64,000 nt of DNA, taken from assembly GCA_018433675.1 (NCBI GenBank), contig JAHDQS010000006.1, positions 2,425 to 66,424 on the forward strand, given 5' to 3'. Of this stretch, positions 2,596 through 59,891 are shown piece by piece. The notes below the pieces were generated by a model, which was not told where the DNA came from, did no database searches, and worked only from the letters and a program-made list of their open reading frames with translations. How positions within the stretch are numbered: the first letter of the stretch is position 1; the number at the start of each line of letters is the position of its first letter. The position numbers were made by a program, and so were the translations under genes. This DNA comes from Clostridia bacterium. Lineage in GTDB: Bacteria > Bacillota > Peptococcia > DRI-13 > SM3-B62.

Positions 2596-2702
2596 AAAAA
2601 AACAAAAAGCCGCATAAACACATAGTTTATACGACCGGTTGCACCACTGGCTCTGCGCAAATCAGGTGCCCAGATTTCCCTGCGCTTCATAGCTTTCGTA
2701 CA
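2596..2702 (-). promoter_or_regulatory. candidate c-di-GMP-II riboswitch with terminator expression platform
   Basis: The minus-strand RNA is UACGAAAGCUAUGAAGCGCAGGGAAAUCUGGGCACCUGAUUUGCGCAGAGCCAGUGGUGCAACCGGUCGUA. It contains UGGGCACNUGA and GUGCAACCGNNCG blocks, as I recall them from the crystallised Clostridium acetobutylicum class-II c-di-GMP aptamer. P1 would be UACGA/UCGUA. The aptamer is followed by the hairpin CGUAUAAAC-UAUGU-GUUUAUGCG plus GCUUUUUGUUUUUUU (2596-2633). Confidence 0.55.
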
Positions 2703-2707
2703 CAGTA

Positions 2708-4802: not shown

Positions 4803-5582
4803 TCATCCTATAAATTTCTGAATAAAACTCATCCTATGTACCGGACAGGGTCCGTGCTCTGTCAACGCTTTCATGTGCAAAAGTGTCCCATAGCCCTTAT
4901 GCTTGCGGAAATCGTACTGAGGATATATGGTATCCATCTCTTCCATTAAAAAATCACGATGTGTTTTAGCTATAATAGATGCTGCGGCAATCGACGCACA
5001 AACAGCATCACCATGAATTATTCCCTCTTGTCTAATATCTGTCTGTATATTCATGGCATCAATCAAGAGGTAATCAGGCTTAACGTTCATGTCTTCCACT
5101 GCTAGAAGCATAGCTTTTTCTGTAGCATTAAGAATATTTATACGATCAATCTCTTCGTTATCTACAAGCCCAACCCCCCAGGCCACCGCACAATCTTTAA
5201 TCTGCCCAGCCAGCTTTTCTCTCATCCCCGGCGACAACTTTTTTGAATCATTCAAACCAGTCAACTCCACACCGCAAGGCAACAGCACACATGCCGCCAC
5301 TACCGGACCCGCCAAAGGTCCTCGGCCCGCTTCGTCGATCCCGGCTACCTGTAGAAAACCTTTTTTTTGCAGAAGCCGCTCCTTTTCCCAAAGAACTGCC
5401 AAGCGATTGCTTTCCTCTTTTTCACGGAACAGCATCTTTTCGTAGCGCTCAACAAGGGTTTTTACACCTTTACGCTTGTCATACCTCAATTCTTCGAGGA
5501 TCTCATCCCTACCCTTTCCCGCTTCATACAACAACGATTGAAGCTCTGAAACACTCATTTTCTCTCTTTCTGCTTTATTCAT
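4803..5582 (-). CDS. rnhB: ribonuclease HII
   Basis: 259 aa. AGIDEAGRGPLAGPVVAA and DSKKL motifs are present, with synteny to ylqF. Confidence 0.9.
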   Translation of the reverse strand: MNKAEREKMSVSELQSLLYEAGKGRDEILEELRYDKRKGVKTLVERYEKMLFREKEESNRLAVLWEKERLLQKKGFLQVAGIDEAGRGPLAGPVVAACVLLPCGVELTGLNDSKKLSPGMREKLAGQIKDCAVAWGVGLVDNEEIDRINILNATEKAMLLAVEDMNVKPDYLLIDAMNIQTDIRQEGIIHGDAVCASIAAASIIAKTHRDFLMEEMDTIYPQYDFRKHKGYGTLLHMKALTEHGPCPVHRMSFIQKFIG

Positions 5583-6433
5583 ATACTTCTCCTTATGTCA
5601 TCCATAGTTACAGCTCCAAGCTTCCCGCTGCGAAACTCCTCCAGCAAAACCAAGGCACCCTTTTCTGTCTCAATTATACCGCCGGTCCTGACAAATCCGC
5701 GCCTTTTACTTATCCGAGTCATTATCTCCTCTACAGAAAGTTCCTCGTCAACACCATATCTCTGAAGTATTCTACCGGGTATATTAACGCATAGCCACTC
5801 AACCAACCACCTTGCTATGTCTTCGACATCTAGTGCCCTTTCTCCGACGGCACCGGTTACTGCCAACTTGTATCCGACTTCGGGATCCTCGATCTTTGGC
5901 CACAGAATACCCGGCATATCCAGTAATTCAACATCTCTGCCGATCTTGATCCACTGTTTACCTCTGGTAACGCCCGGTTTATTCCCTGTTTCTGCTGCTT
6001 TACTGCCTGCCAGGAAATTGATTAGCGTTGACTTTCCAACGTTTGGTATACCAACAACCATCGTCCTTACTACAGTTTTAATTATACCTTTTTTCTTCCT
6101 TTTTTCAATGACACCCTGAGCCTGTTCCCTGATACCCTGAAGGAGACGGTTTCTTGCAGAGCCCTTGCCATGCAAGGCATCAATCGGTATTGCCGAAAGA
6201 CCCACACCCTCAAAATGTTTTAGCCACTCTGCCGTTTTTTCCGGATCAGCTAAATCCTCTCTTGTTAACACCAATACCTTTGGCTTATTGATAATAATAT
6301 CGTCCAACAAGGGATTACGGCTGCTTACAGGAAGCCTCGCATCAGCCAATTCCAGCACTACATCCACCAGATTGATGTTTTCCGTGATAAGGCGTTTGGT
6401 TTTAGCCATATGCCCCGGAAACCATTGTACCAT
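5579..6433 (-). CDS. rbgA: ribosome biogenesis GTPase YlqF/RbgA
   Basis: 284 aa. The protein starts MVQWFPGHMAK and has circularly permuted GTPase motifs (NKPKVLVLTREDL, GIPNVGKST). Confidence 0.9.
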   Translation of the reverse strand: MVQWFPGHMAKTKRLITENINLVDVVLELADARLPVSSRNPLLDDIIINKPKVLVLTREDLADPEKTAEWLKHFEGVGLSAIPIDALHGKGSARNRLLQGIREQAQGVIEKRKKKGIIKTVVRTMVVGIPNVGKSTLINFLAGSKAAETGNKPGVTRGKQWIKIGRDVELLDMPGILWPKIEDPEVGYKLAVTGAVGERALDVEDIARWLVEWLCVNIPGRILQRYGVDEELSVEEIMTRISKRRGFVRTGGIIETEKGALVLLEEFRSGKLGAVTMDDIRRSI

Positions 6434-6499
6434 TTTACTCGCCTCCCAAAAGACAACACAGCTTACGCGAAATAATCGCCTTTTTGTTTATATTATATA

Positions 6500-6530
6500 G
6501 AAACAAAGGGACTGAATAATTCAGCCCCTT
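6500..6530 (-). terminator. hairpin/terminator after rplS
   Basis: Minus strand AAGGGGCUGAAUUAUUCAGUCCCUU followed by UGUUUC. The U tract is weak. Confidence 0.45.
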
Positions 6531-6555
6531 CAACCACCATCCGAAATTCAACTAT

Positions 6556-6900
6556 CTACTTTGCCCGCTCTTTGATTCTGGCAGCCTTACCCGAACGCTG
6601 ACGCAGATAATAAAGCTTGGCTCTTCTTACTCTGCCCAGACGTACGACTTCAATCTTCTCCAATCTGGGTGAATGTACGGGAAAACAGCGCTCAACTCCC
6701 ACACCATAGGAAACACGACGCACGGTGAAGGTCTCACTCAAACCGCTTCCTTTTCTTTTTATAACAACACCTTCAAATACCTGTACCCTTTCCCTGCTGC
6801 CCTCAACAACCTTAACGTGTACTTTCACGGTGTCACCGGGACGGAATTCAGGTATATCATCGCGAAGATGTTCTTTTTCCACAGCTTTGATAAAATCCAT
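6556..6900 (-). CDS. rplS: 50S ribosomal protein L19
   Basis: The track ORF is trimmed to the internal ATG at 6900 ([11 protein letters not shown]...), which is preceded by GGAGG. The sequence is a typical L19. Confidence 0.9.
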
Positions 6901-7028
6901 AATATACAACCTCCTTCCCACATGAACGTTCATATCCCACCCTCAGGTCAGGACAGCGGACCATCCGTTCTCACAAGCGCAATGCGCAACCGTTTTGTAT
7001 TATATCATAACACTTTGCCAACAAGCAA
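6901..7028 (-). promoter_or_regulatory. rplS promoter plus structured leader (possible L19 autoregulatory leader)
   Basis: The minus strand reads TTGCTT (7028-7023), an 18 nt spacer, then TGATATAAT (-10 at 7004-6999). A GC-rich leader of about 95 nt follows, with paired segments GCGCAUUGCGC and GGAUGGUCCGCUGUCC. Firmicute rplS genes commonly carry an L19 leader at this position. Confidence 0.4.
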
Positions 7029-48690: not shown

Positions 48691-50358
48691 TTACCAGTTT
48701 CTGAATCTTGCCGGTGGATTATATAATCCGCCGGACCATTCGACCAGTTCCTTGATATTCTTCGCCGCAAGCATCGACCTGTTGGCGCGTGTAACATCAA
48801 TGCCTAAATCTTCCGGTGTCTTTACAATGCCTCTCTTACGCAAATCCATCGTTTCTTCTTCTTTAGCCTGTAAACCAATCTCGGTATAACCGGCAATCGC
48901 TCTAATAGCAGCCATCTTTTCCTTCATATCCACACATTTATGGAAGTAGGCAATTCCTTCCTCAGTGATATAGTGGGTGACATCGTCCGAATAAACCATA
49001 ACCGGAGGAATATCCAGATTAGCGTTTTTCTGCAGCTTCCAAGCATCCAGCTCATCAACAAAGGCCGGATCCATCTTCTCTTTGAAGGTCTCCTGCATCT
49101 GAACAACCAACTTTTTACCGCGAGGCATTTTGCCGAGAAGGGCTTCTTGCATACCGTACTCGAGTCCACACTTCAACCATGCATCTGACGAGTGACGGCG
49201 CCCTTTGGCATCGCAACCCATGTTGGGTGCACCGCCGAAGCCGGCAACCCTATTTGCCGTAGCAGTACTGCTGTTGCCGTACTTATCTATCTGCAGAGTT
49301 CCACCGATAAACATATCCATTGCATAATGCCCTGCTGCCTGGCTGTAAGCCCGGTTTGACCTCAGGGTTCCATCCGGCCCAATGAAGAAGACATCTGATC
49401 TTGCGGCAACGTATTTTTCCATTCCTAATTCTCCGCCGAAGCAGTGAATATTCTTGACCCAACCACTTTCAATAGCCGGTATCATCGTCGGATGGGGGTT
49501 GAGAGCAAAGTATGAACAAATCTTGCCTTTGAGTCCTAACTCTTCGGCATAGGTCGGCAGCATGAGTTCGATTGCGGCTGTGAAGAATCCTATCCCGTGG
49601 TTCATGCTCTGCACACCGTATTCTGCGTAAACGCCTTTAAGGGCCATCATACCCATCAAAATTTGTGTGTCTGTAATTAGGCCAGGATCCCTTGTAAACA
49701 AAGGCTCAATGTAAAAGTTCTTGGGCGATTGAATGACAAAGTCGACCCAGTCGGCCGGAATATCTACCCGTGGAACCTTGTCGACTATTTTATTGACCTG
49801 CGCAATAACAATACCCTGCTTAAACTTCGTAGCTTCGACAATTATCGGCGTGTCTTCCGTATTAAAACCCGTATAGAGGTTACCCTCCTTATCTGCTTCA
49901 AACGCAACAATCAAGGCTACTTTCGGTACCAGGTCTGCATAGTACCTACCAAATAACTCCAAATAAGTATGGATGGCACCCAATTCCAGCTTGCCATCAC
50001 GGACAAAATCCGCCAGACGGCCCGCCTGCGGTCCCGAAAAAGAAAAATCGAGTTTTTTCGCGATTCCCTTTTCGAAAACGTCAAGATGGCTTTTCAATGA
50101 TACGACTGACTGAACCATATGAAGATCATAGATCTTCTTGGGGTCCACCTCACAGAGACATTCCGCCAAAAAATCCGCCTGTTTCTGGTTGTTTCCTTCC
50201 AGATTCACCTTGTCTCCGGGCTTGATTACTCCTTCTAATAGAGCAACCGTATTCTCGGCTTTAACTACCTTGCCTTCTTCAACCAGATGCGCTACTTTTT
50301 TCATTCTTTCTTCGGTGTCTCTTTTTAAATTGTCCCAAACTCTCACTTCACGTTCCAT
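48691..50358 (-). CDS. madA: malonate decarboxylase alpha subunit (acetyl-S-ACP:malonate ACP transferase)
   Basis: 555 aa, the typical length for MdcA/MadA, with CoA-transferase-like architecture. It is the first gene after the leader terminator. Confidence 0.9.
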   Translation of the reverse strand: MEREVRVWDNLKRDTEERMKKVAHLVEEGKVVKAENTVALLEGVIKPGDKVNLEGNNQKQADFLAECLCEVDPKKIYDLHMVQSVVSLKSHLDVFEKGIAKKLDFSFSGPQAGRLADFVRDGKLELGAIHTYLELFGRYYADLVPKVALIVAFEADKEGNLYTGFNTEDTPIIVEATKFKQGIVIAQVNKIVDKVPRVDIPADWVDFVIQSPKNFYIEPLFTRDPGLITDTQILMGMMALKGVYAEYGVQSMNHGIGFFTAAIELMLPTYAEELGLKGKICSYFALNPHPTMIPAIESGWVKNIHCFGGELGMEKYVAARSDVFFIGPDGTLRSNRAYSQAAGHYAMDMFIGGTLQIDKYGNSSTATANRVAGFGGAPNMGCDAKGRRHSSDAWLKCGLEYGMQEALLGKMPRGKKLVVQMQETFKEKMDPAFVDELDAWKLQKNANLDIPPVMVYSDDVTHYITEEGIAYFHKCVDMKEKMAAIRAIAGYTEIGLQAKEEETMDLRKRGIVKTPEDLGIDVTRANRSMLAAKNIKELVEWSGGLYNPPARFRNW

Positions 50359-50403
50359 TTACTACGCTCCTTTCTTACCATATTAATTTAACTGCAACCT
50401 CCT

Positions 50404-50447
50404 AAAAAAAAGGACAGATTGGAGCCCTCACGGACCCTTCCTCTGTC
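50404..50447 (-). terminator. intrinsic terminator in the hutP-like/madA intergenic leader
   Basis: Minus strand GACAGAGGAAGGGUCCGUGAGGGCUCCAAUCUGUCC followed by UUUUUUUU. It ends about 45 nt upstream of the madA ATG. Confidence 0.7.
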
Positions 50448-50533
50448 TCTCCTTCTCCACTATCTCTTTTCTCTGTCTATATTCTCTTCTTTTGTCTTGT
50501 TTATTCTTTCTCTCTGTCATTCATATTATATCC

Positions 50534-50986
50534 TTAACAGATATGCATTACTCCCAAACCAGCTCTCATATGATTTGTCAGTGGGTGTATAGCAGATTGA
50601 CCGAACATGGCTACCGCTATCCACGTATCATCTCTCACTATTGCAACTTTCACGGCAAGGCTGGTACTGGTAGAAGCATTAACCAAAATACCTTTCTTTG
50701 CTTCCTCTGTCGCATGTAACACCGCATGTACCTGCTGTGTTGTCTTCTTGATGATATTGGTGTTTAAGCAAGCACCCAATATTGCTTTAGTCGTTTTTTC
50801 CTGAAAACCGGTATGAGAAAGACCTCCGATTTCGGTAACAACATGTCTTAAACCATCTTTATCAAGAAGAGCTTTAACTGCTTTTTCCGTATTTAAACTC
50901 CGGGTTATCGCCAGCAACATGGCAGCCGTTTCAACCGAAAGAGTAGCTTCGTCCTTAAAGCAATCAACCATCTTAACCGTGTTCAA
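50534..50986 (-). CDS. hutP: HutP-family RNA-binding antiterminator-like protein (paralog 2)
   Basis: 150 aa. VHAVLHATEEAKKGI and TWIAVAMFGQSAIHPLTNHMRAGLGVMHI align by eye with B. subtilis HutP HALYHATMEALHGV and DWIAVSLYGTIGAPIKGLEHETFGVGINHI. The TTG start lies after GGAAGGTG. Confidence 0.75.
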   Translation of the reverse strand: MNTVKMVDCFKDEATLSVETAAMLLAITRSLNTEKAVKALLDKDGLRHVVTEIGGLSHTGFQEKTTKAILGACLNTNIIKKTTQQVHAVLHATEEAKKGILVNASTSTSLAVKVAIVRDDTWIAVAMFGQSAIHPLTNHMRAGLGVMHIC

Positions 50987-51031
50987 TTTAACACCTTCCT
51001 TCCCTCTATTTCTCTTTCCCTCATTGTGTTA

Positions 51032-51061
51032 AATATACAATAAATTTGTAAAGAATGTCAA
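51032..51061 (-). promoter_or_regulatory. candidate sigma-A promoter for hutP-like/madA operon
   Basis: The minus strand reads TTGACA (51061-51056), an 18 nt spacer, then TATATT (51037-51032). Confidence 0.55.
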
Positions 51062-51131
51062 CGCTTTTGTAACTATTCCACCAAGTTACCGATACCTGCT
51101 TGTTACCGGTCACTATCTCGATAATCATTTC

Positions 51132-52337
51132 TTACAGCATGAAAATCGTCGAGATAAAGACACCTGCCGCAATGGCCGAAACTATCAAACCGCTGACACC
51201 GGCACCCATAGCTAAGGGCATAATAACACAGAAAGGATTCTCTTCCATGGCGGTCTTTTGAGCAATTTTAGCAGTCGTTGGCAGGCAGGAAACACCGGCA
51301 ATACCGATAACCGGGTTATAGTTCCCCTTACTGAACTTATAAATCAGCCAACCGCCAACGATGCCGCCTACACCTGAAACAGCCAAAGCAAGTATTCCTA
51401 AAACGACCAAAACACCTACCTTAGGATTCAGAATCGTTTGCGCTTCACACAAAGCCCCTAACAAGAAACCCAGGAACAATGTTGAACCGTAAGTAACGGT
51501 AGTCTCCAACAAAGTCTGAAAAGGTTCAATCTCCGCTTCTTTAATGGCAATCCCCAAGAAGAAGGAAACAATAAGCGGTGCCGCAACAGGCAACAGGAGA
51601 CATAACAAACCACAAGCTATGACAGTGAAGACGAACTTTGATTTTTTGGTAACGTTAGGCGTTGGTATCTCCACGTCAATACCCCTGTATTTTTTAGGAA
51701 CCAAAAGCTTGATGATATAAGGATACCCTGCATAAGTCAAGCTCAAGTAAAGATAAGCTATGATCGAAATCGGTACAAAGAGATCTTTCGCCAGAATCAG
51801 GGACGTAAACAGAACCATCGGCCCGTCTGCACCGCCGATAACAGCAATTGAAGCAGCCTCACCGGGCGGAAGACCTATCTTGAGGGCTACTACCAAAGTT
51901 ACAAATGTACCCAACTCGGCAAACAGAGCCACAATTATGCTTGCCCAAGGTCTAGCCAAGATGAAACCGATCTCGCTCATGGACCCTATTCCAAAGAACA
52001 CTAAGCAGGCAATCAAGCCATTGCTAAAGGTCATATTGTAAATCGGCTGCAGCCAGTTAACCTGCATAATATCCACAAGGGCACCAGGATCTGCTACCAG
52101 AGGATCCAAAAATATGGTGCCTATTCTACCGGCCTCCAAGAACAAAACACCGGCATTGATTGCTATCATCCCAATTCCCATGGGAACCATAATCAACGGT
52201 TCTAAGACCCTCTTAAAACCCATGTAAGCTAAAATGAATCCAAAAATCATTAATGCTACCCTTGTTAAGGATATAACAGGGTCTTGCAAAAAAAGAGTAC
52301 TTATACCGGGAAACAACTGTGACAAAGTATTAAGCAT
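51132..52337 (-). CDS. madB: Na+-translocating decarboxylase beta subunit (MadB/OadB family)
   Basis: 401 aa polytopic protein of typical OadB/GcdB/MadB length and composition. Confidence 0.9.
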   Translation of the reverse strand: MLNTLSQLFPGISTLFLQDPVISLTRVALMIFGFILAYMGFKRVLEPLIMVPMGIGMIAINAGVLFLEAGRIGTIFLDPLVADPGALVDIMQVNWLQPIYNMTFSNGLIACLVFFGIGSMSEIGFILARPWASIIVALFAELGTFVTLVVALKIGLPPGEAASIAVIGGADGPMVLFTSLILAKDLFVPISIIAYLYLSLTYAGYPYIIKLLVPKKYRGIDVEIPTPNVTKKSKFVFTVIACGLLCLLLPVAAPLIVSFFLGIAIKEAEIEPFQTLLETTVTYGSTLFLGFLLGALCEAQTILNPKVGVLVVLGILALAVSGVGGIVGGWLIYKFSKGNYNPVIGIAGVSCLPTTAKIAQKTAMEENPFCVIMPLAMGAGVSGLIVSAIAAGVFISTIFML

Positions 52338-52340
52338 CTG

Positions 52341-52511
52341 TTAAACCTCCCCTTCCCCGTTGTCTTTACCACCGGACAACATTTTATTTACTCCGACTAT
52401 TACCCCCACAACGGCGAAGGCTATCACTGCAGTCAAAGCATAAGCAAAAAGCGCGTATTGTATTGCTCCCAATTTTTCCACCTTCCTTTTGTAATATTTG
52501 AAAACAAACAT
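52341..52511 (-). CDS. small single-TM protein (possible decarboxylase gamma-like/anchor subunit)
   Basis: The start is trimmed to ATG at 52511, after GGAGG (52521-52517). The 56 aa protein has one TM (ALFAYALTAVIAFAVVGVIVGV) and is separated from madB by 3 nt. Confidence 0.5.
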   Translation of the reverse strand: MFVFKYYKRKVEKLGAIQYALFAYALTAVIAFAVVGVIVGVNKMLSGGKDNGEGEV

Positions 52512-52797: not shown

Positions 52798-53241
52798 TTA
52801 ACTCATTTCATTTACCTGTTGGATACCCTGTCCGTTTGTTTGCACAATGGGCTTATCATTCTTAAACTTATCAACTACACCTTGAATCTTATCCACCACT
52901 TGAGGGGCAACATCTACCAGTCTTTCCATTACCGCATTCCTGCCATCAACAGGCATTAAACGCACCTCGCCATTACCAACCACAAGAAAACCGACAGGCT
53001 GAACAGAAACACCCGCGCCGCTACCTCCGCCAAAAGGCAGTTCCGATATCTCGCGTCCTTCTGTTGTGGCGTTGAACTCGCTGCCCCCCGCTGCAAAACC
53101 GCAGCCGACACGAGATACAGGAATAATCACAGTGCCGTCGGGTGTTTCCACCGCATCGCCGACAACAGTATTCACCTCTACCATTTCCTTGATACTCTCC
53201 ATGGCCGTTTTCATAAGAGCTTCAATAGGATGGTTACTCAT
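52798..53241 (-). CDS. ytfJ: sporulation protein YtfJ (GerW family)
   Basis: 147 aa with the typical sequence VIIPVSRVGCGFAAGGSEF...PFGGGSGAGVSVQPVGFLVV. Confidence 0.85.
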   Translation of the reverse strand: MSNHPIEALMKTAMESIKEMVEVNTVVGDAVETPDGTVIIPVSRVGCGFAAGGSEFNATTEGREISELPFGGGSGAGVSVQPVGFLVVGNGEVRLMPVDGRNAVMERLVDVAPQVVDKIQGVVDKFKNDKPIVQTNGQGIQQVNEMS

Positions 53242-53923
53242 TTTTAAACCTCCTTAGTGTTTCTTTGATTTCTCCGATATTCCTAAGTATCCGGTAAACG
53301 ATAATAATAATATGGCTTAAGTAAAACTCAATTATACAGTAATAATCCACATGCAGGTAATTTGTCTTTTCAAACCTGGGGATCACCTCTATTTTCCCTT
53401 CCGTATCGTGCATATCGAAAGTCGTCGCCAGTCTAGCGTGCATCACACCCATAACCGACCATAACAAACCTGTTGATACTGCTGTTTCTGCGACATCTTG
53501 CAGCGCAATTTCGGTAGCAAGCTTGAGGGTGGCTAGCTTTGGCCTGCCTATCACCGCAAAAGCCCTCGTAAAACCCTGCATGATATAACTGTTCAGCTTT
53601 GCTGCCAATAGAATCCTTCTCAATACACGACCCCAGGGCACATCTTTTGCTGCAAGATCCTCCGGTGATTTTTCCGGCTTTCTAAAAGGTTTGCGTGAAA
53701 GACCCCAAATCATCTTCGTCACAGGATTAACCACTTCTATCCCCCCGGGAAGGAAGCGGTTTTTTATTCGCGCACTGAATTCTATCCTGTTTTCTTTTCT
53801 TGTCAGCCTCAGCGATAACGAAAGAGGCAGATATATTACAACAACCACTACAAGCAACAGGAGAAAAAAAACACCCAAGGCTATATAACCCAAGACAAGC
53901 CACCCTTTACTTTTTACTGCCAA
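53234..53923 (-). CDS. DUF2953-like membrane protein (YtfI-like)
   Basis: 229 aa with an N-terminal TM, directly upstream of and overlapping ytfJ as in other spore formers. Confidence 0.55.
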   Translation of the reverse strand: MAVKSKGWLVLGYIALGVFFLLLLVVVVVIYLPLSLSLRLTRKENRIEFSARIKNRFLPGGIEVVNPVTKMIWGLSRKPFRKPEKSPEDLAAKDVPWGRVLRRILLAAKLNSYIMQGFTRAFAVIGRPKLATLKLATEIALQDVAETAVSTGLLWSVMGVMHARLATTFDMHDTEGKIEVIPRFEKTNYLHVDYYCIIEFYLSHIIIIVYRILRNIGEIKETLRRFKNE

Positions 53924-53971: not shown

Positions 53972-54514
53972 TTACTTACTCTCATTTTCAATTTTCTCTG
54001 TTTCCTGCAGCTTGGGTAATTCTTCTAACGACCTTAGCCCTAAATACTTTAAGAAGGATTTAGACGTAACGTACAAAATAGGACGTCCCGCAGTATCCCG
54101 CCGACCCGCTTCCTTGATTAAGCCTCTTTCCTGTAACGTATTTAAGGAACTCTCACTTTTAACACCACGAATTTCATCAATCTCACTTTTTGTTACCGGC
54201 TGTCGATAGGCAATAATTGCTAACGTTTCCAGCGCTGCTTGTGAAAGAGCCATTAACCTGGGTTTAGCTATCTTTTCCACATATGGAGCAAACTCCGGTC
54301 GGGTCACAAAGGAATAACCCTCTGCTACCTCTGTCAAAATGAAGCCCTTCCCCGTCTTCTCACAATCGGCTTTGATTTCTTTTAAATAGTACAGGACATC
54401 CCTTTCGTCCCTACCCAGTGTTTCGGCAATAACCTTCAGAGATAATGGCTCACCTGAAACAAACAGTAGAGCCTCAATTATGCTTTTAGTATCATCAGGA
54501 AACAAAGTTGGCAC
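53972..54514 (-). CDS. scpB: segregation and condensation protein B
   Basis: 180 aa. EALLFVSGEPL and tandem winged-helix features are present (LETLAIIAYRQPVTKSEIDEIRG). Confidence 0.9.
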   Translation of the reverse strand: MPTLFPDDTKSIIEALLFVSGEPLSLKVIAETLGRDERDVLYYLKEIKADCEKTGKGFILTEVAEGYSFVTRPEFAPYVEKIAKPRLMALSQAALETLAIIAYRQPVTKSEIDEIRGVKSESSLNTLQERGLIKEAGRRDTAGRPILYVTSKSFLKYLGLRSLEELPKLQETEKIENESK

Positions 54515-55256
54515 TTGTCCGTTCTCCTTCTTCTATTCTCAAGAATACAATAATATCAGCAAACAACCCTGACTGACGAAGCATCACAACGCCGCGTCTG
54601 GCTAGTTCCAACAACGCTAAAAAAGTAACAACAACTTCATCCGGCCTTCTGACCGAACTGAATAATTCATAGAATACAACACCCCCAGGTCTCTCCTCCA
54701 GCGCTGTTACTATCTCCCGGATCTTTTCCTGGATGGTTATTTCCTCACGGTCTATCGAAATAACTTCCTTCTTCCTCTCAGCCCTGCGTAACACATGACA
54801 ATACGCTTTCAGCATATCCTGCAGAGAAACAGAGCCTAACGGATTCGCCGCGGGAAACTCACTCAAGAGCTTGACCTCGTCAACCTCCCGCCAAAAGGCA
54901 ATCGATTGCGCCGTCTCCATGTTTTTGAATTCCGCGGCCTTCTCCTTATATTGCTTATACTCTAAAAGCTTTTCTACCAGAGCTTGTCTCGGGTCCTCTT
55001 CAATTTCATCTTCTTCTGCCTTTTTGTGTTTGGGAAGCAGCATTTTAACCTTAATCGACAGAAGAGTACACGCCATCAACAAAAATTCGCTTGTTAACTC
55101 AAGGTCCAGTTCTCCCACCCCAGCTAAGTACTCTAAGTATTGCTCCGTTATCAGGGCAATAGGAATATCATAAATATCAATTTCATTTTTCTCAATCAGA
55201 TGCAATAAAACATCAAGTGGCCCTTCAAAATCAGGTATCTTCACTTCATAATTCAT
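54495..55256 (-). CDS. scpA: segregation and condensation protein A
   Basis: 253 aa. FEGPLDVLLHLIEKNEIDIYDIPIA is a typical ScpA N-terminus. Confidence 0.9.
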   Translation of the reverse strand: MNYEVKIPDFEGPLDVLLHLIEKNEIDIYDIPIALITEQYLEYLAGVGELDLELTSEFLLMACTLLSIKVKMLLPKHKKAEEDEIEEDPRQALVEKLLEYKQYKEKAAEFKNMETAQSIAFWREVDEVKLLSEFPAANPLGSVSLQDMLKAYCHVLRRAERKKEVISIDREEITIQEKIREIVTALEERPGGVVFYELFSSVRRPDEVVVTFLALLELARRGVVMLRQSGLFADIIVFLRIEEGERTSANFVS

Positions 55257-59644: not shown

Positions 59645-59891
59645 AAAAAACAGCCCGAGGTTTTCTCCGCTGTTACTAGTCCAACACCCTCTTTTCCCCA
59701 GTTTGAGATAGTTCTCCCCCGGGTAAATGGGATTTACCCGGCGACAGTTCCGTACCTATTTGGCACGGACCCAGCATAAAGGCTCGGCAACCTTTACACT
59801 TCGGCGGAGATTCCTTTCAGCACGGCTCATTACAGCCACATTCCCCGGCTTACTCTTAACGCGCATTCTCAGCAAATTGCGCAACTCCGCG
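59645..59891 (-). promoter_or_regulatory. L-box lysine riboswitch with terminator
   Basis: The minus-strand RNA carries the conserved L-box blocks: GGAGUUGCGC, AAGAGUAAGCC, CUGAAAGGAAUCUCCGCCGAAG, GCUGGGUCCGUGCC and GGAACUGUCGCC. A CCGGGUAAAUCCCAUUUACCCGG hairpin follows, then CAGCGGAGAAAACCUCGGGCUG plus UUUUUU (59645-59672). The element lies upstream of lysA. Confidence 0.75.

Follow-up and report, generated by a model that had tools for sequence, protein, structure and literature searches.

A 150-residue protein encoded within the malonate decarboxylase (mad) operon of a Clostridia bacterium belongs to the HutP family, and the sequence evidence makes it fairly probable that it represents a distinct HutP subfamily, acting as a ligand-activated, RNA-binding antiterminator for malonate catabolism. 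The gene lies in a stretch of 64,000 nucleotides (nt) of contig JAHDQS010000006.1 (GenBank assembly GCA_018433675.1), referred to below as the window, and all features of the locus occupy the minus strand. Carrying this reading are the family and fold of the protein, the conserved gene order around it, an RNA element overlapping one arm of an intrinsic terminator, and the co-occurrence of that element with the gene, each observed computationally; the most likely role of the protein is to switch malonate use on by antitermination. A preliminary description of this DNA had proposed that a HutP homologue gates malonate decarboxylation here, and knew of no described case; a role for the HutP family in malonate use does appear to be undescribed, with no description of a HutP-type malonate antiterminator found in a literature of 8 million full texts. 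The features on which the argument turns are the following.

50986-50534, minus strand: hutP-like gene, 150 amino acids (aa), with a TTG start 5 nt after the Shine-Dalgarno sequence AGGAAGGUG
50463-50440, minus strand: conserved RNA site of leader element 2, with units AUAGUGGA / GAAGGAGA / GACAGAGG
50449-50404, minus strand: intrinsic terminator 2, the outer stem of which has site units 2-3 as its 5' arm, with U8 at 50411-50404
50530-50471, minus strand: upstream part of the purine-rich leader, with two non-conserved GACAGAG copies (50518-50512 and 50477-50471)
50358-48691, minus strand: madA, malonate decarboxylase alpha subunit (acetyl-ACP:malonate ACP transferase; ACP, acyl carrier protein), Pfam Mal_decarbox_Al E=2.4e-285

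Membership of the HutP family had been proposed from an alignment by eye over the C-terminal half of the protein. The family assignment holds, with the protein matching Pfam HutP (PF09021) at E=8.4e-33 and 113.8 bits (cut-off 25), and the restriction to the C-terminal half falls away, with the match extending over the full length of the model (residues 18-147 against model positions 1-128 of 128). Pfam reports HutP alone for the protein, with no homology to TRAP. The single-chain AlphaFold2 (AF2) model (pLDDT 88, pTM 0.85) has the element order H-H-H-E-H-H-E-E-E, in keeping with the HutP fold, a four-stranded antiparallel sheet packed by helices. Foldseek returns HutP structures as its top four matches in the PDB (including 4ok9, 1vea and 1wmq), with TM scores of 0.69-0.75, 21-23% identity and E values of 1e-9 to 2e-7, and the next matches lie at E>0.01. 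A single-sequence phmmer comparison with the HutP chains of the PDB gave no match at E<=0.01, and a profile of 41 subfamily members aligns to the HutP proteins of B. subtilis (E=8e-7) and Geobacillus (E ~1e-6). Relatives at 50–91% identity are annotated merely as "HutP family protein".

Residues His87, His91 and His139 of the window protein, conserved in 98–100% of 83 subfamily members, align with His73, His77 and His138 of B. subtilis HutP, which are reported to form the divalent-metal site of that protein (Kumarevel et al. 2005). Glu95, aligned to Glu81 of B. subtilis HutP, is invariant among the same 83 members. The B. subtilis residue Arg98, which together with Arg88 contacts L-histidine, is replaced by Ala or Thr in both alignments made here. 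Against the NCBIfam HutP equivalog NF002838 the window protein scores 25 bits where 155 are required, and on this sequence criterion it is a member of the HutP family and not a histidine-type HutP, which supports the earlier suggestion that its effector would be something other than histidine. By analogy with HutP the protein presumably forms a homohexamer with two three-fold RNA-binding faces, each having three equivalent pockets, and the three-unit RNA site described below is consistent with such three-fold symmetry, without proving it.

The intergenic regions 3' of the hutP-like gene share a conserved sequence lying 5' of, and running into, a terminator hairpin, both in mad operons and in a second operon type headed by a CoA-transferase gene. 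An alignment of 66 distinct elements (alignment A2) yields a consensus of three 8-nt units, AUAN[UGG/GAG]N-GANNGAGN-GANNGAGN, with a nearly invariant central GAG (60/64/66 of the 66 elements) and with spacers of N5. Pairs of GAG triplets at a lag of 8 nt number 69, compared with 2.6 in shuffled sequences; a lag of 7 nt is seen in 7 cases. The window site contains UGG (50459-57), GAG (50451-49) and GAG (50443-41), and its element, AUAGUGGAGAAGGAGAGACAGAGG, may be compared with those of a Peptococcaceae metagenome-assembled genome (MAG; locus L019), AUAGUGGCGAAUGAGGGAC, of Sporomusa, AGAGUGAAUGAGGGACAGAG, and of Phascolarctobacterium, AUAGUGGUGAUAGAGAGAGCGAGAG.

Units 2 and 3 of the window site pair with the 3' arm of terminator 2, with the outer stem formed by 50449/50447-50442 and 50418-50412, the inner hairpin by 50437-50432 and 50427-50422, and the ATG of madA at 50358, 45 nt after the U-run. 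The stem-loop, the U8 and the distance to madA are as first described, as is the inclusion of the terminator 5' arm in the RNA site. The computed fold of -25.1 kcal/mol weakens to -11.0 kcal/mol when pairing of 50463-50440 is forbidden, leaving the inner hairpin alone, which no longer adjoins the U-run. The preliminary description had suggested seeking covariation in orthologous loci, and it is found: with the outer-stem pairing imposed by hand and then tested by pair counts, alignment column 25-74 (the R of GAGRGA) holds AU in 47 elements and GC in 16, column 28-71 holds CG in 22 and GC in 19, and the observed covariation score was reached by none of 500 shuffles. RNAalifold returned no consensus structure for the 66-element alignment, because the hairpin interiors do not align. 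Covariance model R1 places leader element 2 at 50468-50403 with 48.3 bits, the top match in the window, this being one of its training sequences. Rfam 15 has nothing relevant at E<=10 in 49800-51600, and no leader match at its gathering threshold.

The tract at 50441-50530 is, as first described, purine-rich on the transcribed strand, and had been credited with three copies of GACAGAG as the binding repeats. The copy at 50447-50441 is where it was reported and the other two lie 2 nt away from their reported positions, at 50477-50471 and 50518-50512. As an operator the three copies are rejected: the conserved site comprises the three 8-nt units at 50463-50440, which include only the last copy, and the closest relative (L007, MAG 'Clostridia bacterium SV3-B7.1'), with a hutP-like protein 91% identical to that of the window, lacks both upstream copies. 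GACAGAG occurs 19 times in the whole window against 4.9 expected, with 17 of the 19 on the minus strand and a fourth copy inside the hutP-like open reading frame (ORF), an excess that probably reflects purine and codon bias of the coding strand; since the heptamer is common on the minus strand, arguments from it alone are weakened. A search of the purine-rich tract for a second binding site, of the kind represented by sites I and II of B. subtilis, gave no conserved candidate. Simple promoter and terminator scans do not on their own exceed chance (2 found against 1.7 expected, and 1 against 0.8), and the weight of evidence must come from comparison with other genomes.

Scanning a single genome for each species yielded 80 loci. 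The hutP-like gene lies directly upstream of madA in 53 and in another mad arrangement in four, giving 57 of the 80 in biotin-type mad operons, whilst in 22 it precedes a gene for a family-III CoA-transferase (E ~1e-126 to 1e-143); in the remaining locus (L070) the contig stops right after the hutP-like gene. Pelosinus fermentans, an uncultured Veillonella and a Clostridia MAG share the order small ORF, madB, (biotin ligase), hutP-like gene, madA, ACP, madC, madD, madH, with madB syntenic with the hutP-like gene in most mad loci, and the conserved order extends over Negativicutes, Clostridia, Bacilli and Fusobacteriota. The subfamily has a wide distribution among anaerobes of gut and soil, with Phascolarctobacterium and Veillonella among the gut genera. 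The preliminary description was right to place a HutP homologue at a malonate operon, which is one case among many.

Sporomusa malonica, S. aerivorans, Anaerospora and several Veillonellaceae belong to the CoA-transferase group, and in L068-L074 this version is flanked by madLM and/or followed by a carboxyltransferase. Apart from the regulator gene, the RNA element and a link to malonate, the target operons of the two types have nothing in common, and two non-homologous, presumably malonate-activating enzymes share one upstream regulator gene. S. malonica uses a malonyl-CoA route. It is one of the organisms for which malonate decarboxylation is a way of life (PMC8085960). An alignment of mad-linked with CoA-transferase-linked proteins was searched for group-specific conserved residues and none was found, which is consistent with one shared ligand.

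That the element accompanies the gene is evident from a control sample of 80 metagenomic loci fetched through MadA alone. Among the 22 that contain a HutP-like gene, 21 have the element at E<=1e-3, the single exception being a variant of the L081 type. The gene is missing from the other 58, and in the 52 of these with at least 500 nt upstream of madA, comprising ~15 biotin-type madB-madA operons (62–73% MadA identity) and ~37 GC-rich mdc-type loci, R1 finds no element at E<=1. Furthermore, all R1 matches lie on the strand of the regulator, both in genome loci (107/107, E<=1) and in metagenome loci (42/42). Conserved gene order and the confinement of the element to loci with the gene together argue for the proposed gating of malonate decarboxylation by a HutP homologue.

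Two further groups of loci were noted. In L107, L108, L111, L114, L115, L117 and L118, biotin-type operons of 50–59% GC in which madB abuts madA, neither HutP-like gene nor element is present. L081 (5387-5472) and L121 have a shorter leader variant (CUGAGAAUCAGAGGACAGGAG and a terminator) that keeps GAG-N5-GAG-N5-GAG and is missed by R1, which consequently underestimates the frequency of the element.

Regulation immediately before madA was the whole of the earlier proposal. That part stands, and the regulated unit starts further upstream, with madB having its own promoter-like site and leader-terminator, and with a further site over the ribosome-binding region of the hutP-like gene. The features concerned are these.

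52749-52721, minus strand: promoter-like site P1, TTGACA-17-TATAAT with TG before the -10 box, 12/12 consensus match (scan)
52636-52572, minus strand: leader element 1, degenerate three-unit site and terminator, upstream of the small ORF and madB
52341..52511, minus strand: small membrane-peptide ORF just before madB, 43 aa (TTG 52472) or 56 aa (ATG 52511)
52337-51132, minus strand: madB, membrane Na+-pumping decarboxylase beta subunit, Pfam OAD_beta E=2.2e-105
51061-51032, minus strand: promoter-like site P2, TTGACA-18-TATATT, before the hutP-like gene, 11/12 match (scan)
51022-51004, minus strand: GAG-N5-GAG-N5-GAG site GAGGGAAAGAGAAAUAGAG, between the P2 -10 box and the hutP-like Shine-Dalgarno/TTG, a candidate autoregulatory site

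The site of leader element 1 (52631-52608, triplets UGG-N5-AAG-N5-AAU) overlaps the 5' arm of its terminator, in which an outer stem (52622-52612 with 52585-52575) and an inner hairpin (52608-52602 with 52594-52588) are accompanied by U9 at 52580-52572; blocking the site changes the computed fold from -23.1 to -9.3 kcal/mol. R1 scores this element, also a training sequence, at 33.5 bits (E=4e-4), and matches the 64-kb window at the two leader elements alone, the next best score being 13 bits. Leader element 1 is conserved in L007, elements outside the training set lie upstream of madB in Pelosinus (L003, 45.6 bits), L011 (33.1 bits), L067 and L001, and many related loci carry both leader elements.

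Loci that keep the start-region site include L007, L001, L009 and Pelosinus. In ~850 kb (83 loci, both strands) there are 50 instances of the strict pattern GAG-N5-GAG-N5-GAG, of which 23 lie in the leader that follows the hutP-like gene, 10 in leaders preceding madB or the first gene, and 17 just upstream of the hutP-like start codon; the only minus-strand instance is one of the 10 upstream leaders, in a locus where the operon is divergent. P2, present as first described, is kept in L007 and is not recognisable in more distant loci. A transcript starting ~7 nt downstream of P2 would have the GAG site at the extreme 5' end of the mRNA, where the site may serve autoregulation. P1, some 85 nt before leader element 1, heads the mad cluster and may function as its promoter.

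In the mechanism that we propose, the mad cluster would be transcribed from P1, before madB, and from P2, before the hutP-like gene, and transcripts would stop at the two intrinsic terminators (52636-52573 and 50468-50403) when no effector is present. With effector, the HutP-like protein would bind the three 8-nt units and hold the terminator 5' arm single-stranded, allowing polymerase to read into madA and on through citG. Binding would prevent the hairpin from forming because units 2 and 3 are the terminator 5' arm, and binding at the upstream copy would likewise give read-through into madB. The triplet array over the ribosome-binding region of the hutP-like gene suggests that active protein would also limit its own translation, as TRAP does at some targets, TRAP binding the translation-initiation regions of some genes besides its transcription-attenuation site. 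Such autoregulation would damp the positive loop that arises where the hutP-like gene itself sits behind the first terminator.

Malonate is the most likely effector, because it is the substrate common to MadA and a malonate CoA-transferase, because madLM transporter genes accompany both operon types, and because the proteins of the two groups share their conserved residues. L-histidine chelates Mg2+ in HutP, and the retained histidine triad suggests that here too the ligand is sensed as a metal chelate. Malonate would be a good bidentate chelator, and by this analogy it is probably bound together with a divalent metal on His87, His91 and His139.

Several points weigh against this reading. The analogy with HutP may be incomplete, given the N5 spacing with its period of 8 nt and the single site at each terminator. 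B. subtilis HutP recognises UAG triplets with 4-nt spacers, whereas GAG with 5-nt spacers predominates here, and it needs two sites bracketing the stem, whereas one conserved three-unit site is found per terminator. The period of 7 nt in B. subtilis is documented by U498/U505/U512 and by the (UUUAGUU)3 model RNA (PMC2425495). The counterpart of Arg88 of B. subtilis HutP is ambiguous: this residue falls in a 4-residue gap of the HMMER alignment, and MAFFT pairs it with a conserved Lys/Arg98. In the window, the site of leader element 1 is degenerate (UGG/AAG/AAU), and the R1 scores of the two elements are not independent, since both are in the training set. Elsewhere, Pelosinus, L011 and L012 lack a terminator between the hutP-like gene and the downstream gene and have the element upstream of madB instead (the L012 copy being in the R1 training set), and in L071 and L074 the gap is 17-20 nt, with a weak match upstream of the gene in L071 and none in L074. 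The link of the CoA-transferases to malonate is circumstantial, as they fall below every named NCBIfam equivalog cut-off, and the neighbouring genes in Sporomusa are unrelated to malonate.

The last of these points bear on the identity of the effector, which was assigned solely from neighbouring genes. The same antitermination mechanism could answer to another dicarboxylate such as succinate or methylmalonate, to a malonyl or acetyl thioester, to acetate or to a metal ion alone, which we regard as unlikely. The nearest models of the CoA-transferases are succinate/glutarate, mesaconate and oxalate transferases, with all equivalog cut-offs missed; S. malonica, to judge from the title of its species description as cited in PMC8085960, grows on succinate too; and the Sporomusa neighbourhoods are uninformative. 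However, free malonate is the one substrate that MadA and the malonate CoA-transferase route have in common, madLM genes flank both operon types, and the two protein groups share all highly conserved residues. That the protein is an ordinary, histidine-responsive HutP standing next to mad genes by chance is hardly tenable: the metal-binding histidines and the counterpart of Glu81 are conserved, but the protein scores 25 bits against the equivalog cut-off of 155, is only 21–23% identical to the solved HutPs, has lost Arg98 to Ala or Thr, and reads an RNA with a different repeat spacing. Moreover, Pfam finds no hut genes in the window locus, and linkage to mad or CoA-transferase genes was counted in 80/80 genomes (the L070 contig ending after the gene).

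The remaining two alternatives concern what the protein does. Were it mainly a repressor of translation or RNA stability in the manner of TRAP, the site overlapping its own ribosome-binding region would be explained, and TRAP too reads GAG/UAG repeats (PMC2425495). At both terminators, however, the site extends over the hairpin's 5' arm, and binding can therefore only disfavour termination, no argument for stabilised termination is at hand (an alternative antiterminator hairpin was not looked for), and the madA and madB sites lie 45-100 nt away from the start codons; we consider repression highly improbable as the main function. It is also very unlikely that the leaders are self-sufficient cis-acting RNAs, either a riboswitch or constitutive terminators or insulators, with the HutP-like protein being, for example, an accessory factor of the decarboxylase. 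The position of the gene in mid-operon among enzymes, between madB (or the biotin ligase gene) and madA, would suit such a factor, and RNAalifold detected no consensus structure besides the terminator. Yet the conserved part is a short unstructured purine repeat rather than an aptamer-like fold and matches no Rfam family, and the site recurs at the translation start of the protein itself, where there is no terminator. CoA-transferase operons, in which there are no decarboxylase subunits, carry the element too, and it is absent from 52/52 madA loci lacking the gene, whilst the protein retains the HutP fold and the metal triad.

Downstream of madA, the product of which scores 979 bits against NCBIfam mdcA (cut-off 789), the window operon continues as follows.

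48669-42101, minus strand: remaining operon (Pfam matches), consisting of the genes below
48669-48337, minus strand: ACP, Pfam ACP (MdcD)
48331-47366 and 47350-46463, minus strand: carboxyltransferase subunits, Pfam Carboxyl_trans and MdcE
46460-45351, minus strand: MadH-like, assigned via the PF27502 annotation of homologues
45347-44625, minus strand: MdcG-family transferase, Pfam MdcG
44596-44387, minus strand: biotin carrier, Pfam Biotin_lipoyl
44273-43881, minus strand: madL, Pfam MadL
43876-43112, minus strand: madM, Pfam MadM
43027-42101, minus strand: CitG-family, Pfam CitG

By these Pfam matches the parts list of a biotin-dependent, mad-type operon is complete (MadA, ACP, two carboxyltransferase subunits, OAD_beta subunit, biotin carrier and MadL/MadM). 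The hutP-like gene lies inside the cluster and not at its head, since madB and the small ORF are directly upstream. The small ORF has no Pfam or NCBIfam match, and ORFs of 41-42 aa occupy the equivalent position in Pelosinus and Veillonella. The Negativicutes (L003, L005 and most loci; L003 5140-5931 is an example) have a gene for a biotin protein ligase (BPL_LplA_LipB) between madB and the hutP-like gene. The window lacks this gene and has a promoter-like site in the gap. Upstream of the mad cluster are the sporulation-associated ytfJ, a DUF2953 gene and scpB/scpA (52798-53923 and 53972-55256, minus strand), from which the host is probably a spore-forming member of the Clostridia. Elsewhere in the window, a lysine riboswitch (71 bits; 59699-59876, minus strand) and a c-di-GMP-II riboswitch (62 bits; 2624-2706, minus strand) exceed the Rfam gathering threshold.

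Several observations on related loci may be added. A compact module, made up of the hutP-like gene, a leader with GAG-N5 site and terminator, and a family-III CoA-transferase gene among unrelated flanking genes, occurs in L013, L014, L016-L018, L020, L021, L023-L025, L027-L032, L043, L062, L068, L071, L072 and L074 (~5000-7000 in each), and its CoA-transferase may be an uncharacterised malonate CoA-transferase. In the long CoA-transferase leaders (~280-320 nt; L018, L024, L027, L030 and L032) a second GAG/UAG-N5 array followed by a hairpin lies ~100 nt upstream of the terminator-proximal site (in L027, for example, GAGAGUAUUAGUGCAAGAGGG) and may represent either another operator or another regulated structure. 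Some mad clusters of Phascolarctobacterium/Acidaminococcaceae encode two HutP-like paralogues, 42–59% identical to the window protein, the first preceding the madB leader(s) and the second the madA leader, such as 2043-2435 and 5001-5438 in L075 (L035-L037, L040, L041, L049, L065, L075, L077, L085, L101-L103, L106, L109 and L112). Additionally, mad contigs of the Phascolarctobacterium type are filed under Duodenibacillus, Ruminococcus intestinalis, Segatella copri, Bacteroidaceae, Bacteroides sp. CAG:545 and Escherichia coli; these contigs (L047, L054, L055, L056, L060 and L083) are probably mis-binned.

Compared with B. subtilis HutP and its hut terminator RNA (1WMQ, 3BOY, 1VEA), the window system has the same Pfam family, fold, histidine triad and Glu81 counterpart, the same placement of the regulator gene immediately upstream of an intrinsic terminator preceding catabolic genes, and a target of three purine triplets ending in AG or GG that lies partly in the terminator 5' arm. 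In contrast, the window protein is 21–23% identical and fails the NCBIfam HutP equivalog cut-off, the regulon concerns malonate decarboxylation or CoA transfer and not histidine degradation, GA dinucleotides flanking the triplets are also conserved, an operon may have as many as three sites, one of them at the ribosome-binding site of the regulator itself, and the taxonomic range takes in Negativicutes, Clostridia and Fusobacteriota where that of HutP is Bacillus. In a 2025 review of RNA-binding antiterminators, HutP figures only as the Bacillus system for histidine. The fold is that of HutP and the strategy probably so; the regulon is new, the repeat period differs, the architecture is multi-site and the ligand is probably new.

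TRAP of Bacillus is also a ligand-activated oligomer reading spaced GAG/UAG triplets in single-stranded RNA (compared in PMC2425495), but its fold is unrelated, it reads 11 triplets with 2-3 nt spacers, and it brings about termination, where the geometry of the present sites predicts antitermination. Neither a HutP-like gene nor the RNA element is found in the GC-rich mdc-type loci of the control sample. The malonate-responsive regulators of malonate operons in Proteobacteria and Rhizobium, MdcR (LysR type) and MdcY and MatR (GntR type), are DNA-binding transcription factors acting at promoters. The mad cluster of Malonomonas rubra, which encodes a biotin-dependent, Na+-translocating malonate decarboxylase, is not known to contain a HutP-like gene. 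In its parts that cluster resembles the window operon, with MadA, ACP, two carboxyltransferase subunits, an OAD_beta-type subunit, a biotin carrier and MadL/MadM (PMC8085960).

In its most specific form, the proposal is that of the first HutP-family regulator with a non-histidine effector, a sensor of a malonate-metal chelate that would read GAG at an 8-nt period and act pathway-wide through two antitermination sites and one translational autoregulatory site, the module being reused before MadA and before a family-III CoA-transferase in four taxa; we judge the case for this full form to be evenly balanced. HutP has so far been regarded as a one-system curiosity, confined to histidine utilisation in Bacillus. 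If the proposal is true, biotin-type malonate decarboxylation in anaerobes and the malonyl-CoA route would both gain their missing regulator. The organisms concerned include Phascolarctobacterium and Veillonella, which are abundant in the gut and are currently of interest for their metabolism of organic acids. The protein, its 24-nt site and a terminator would also make a compact, portable part that might respond to malonate. More broadly, the HutP scaffold would become a general small-molecule-sensing RNA switch, and the two systems would provide a natural experiment on the co-evolution of ligand specificity and RNA repeat spacing on one fold.

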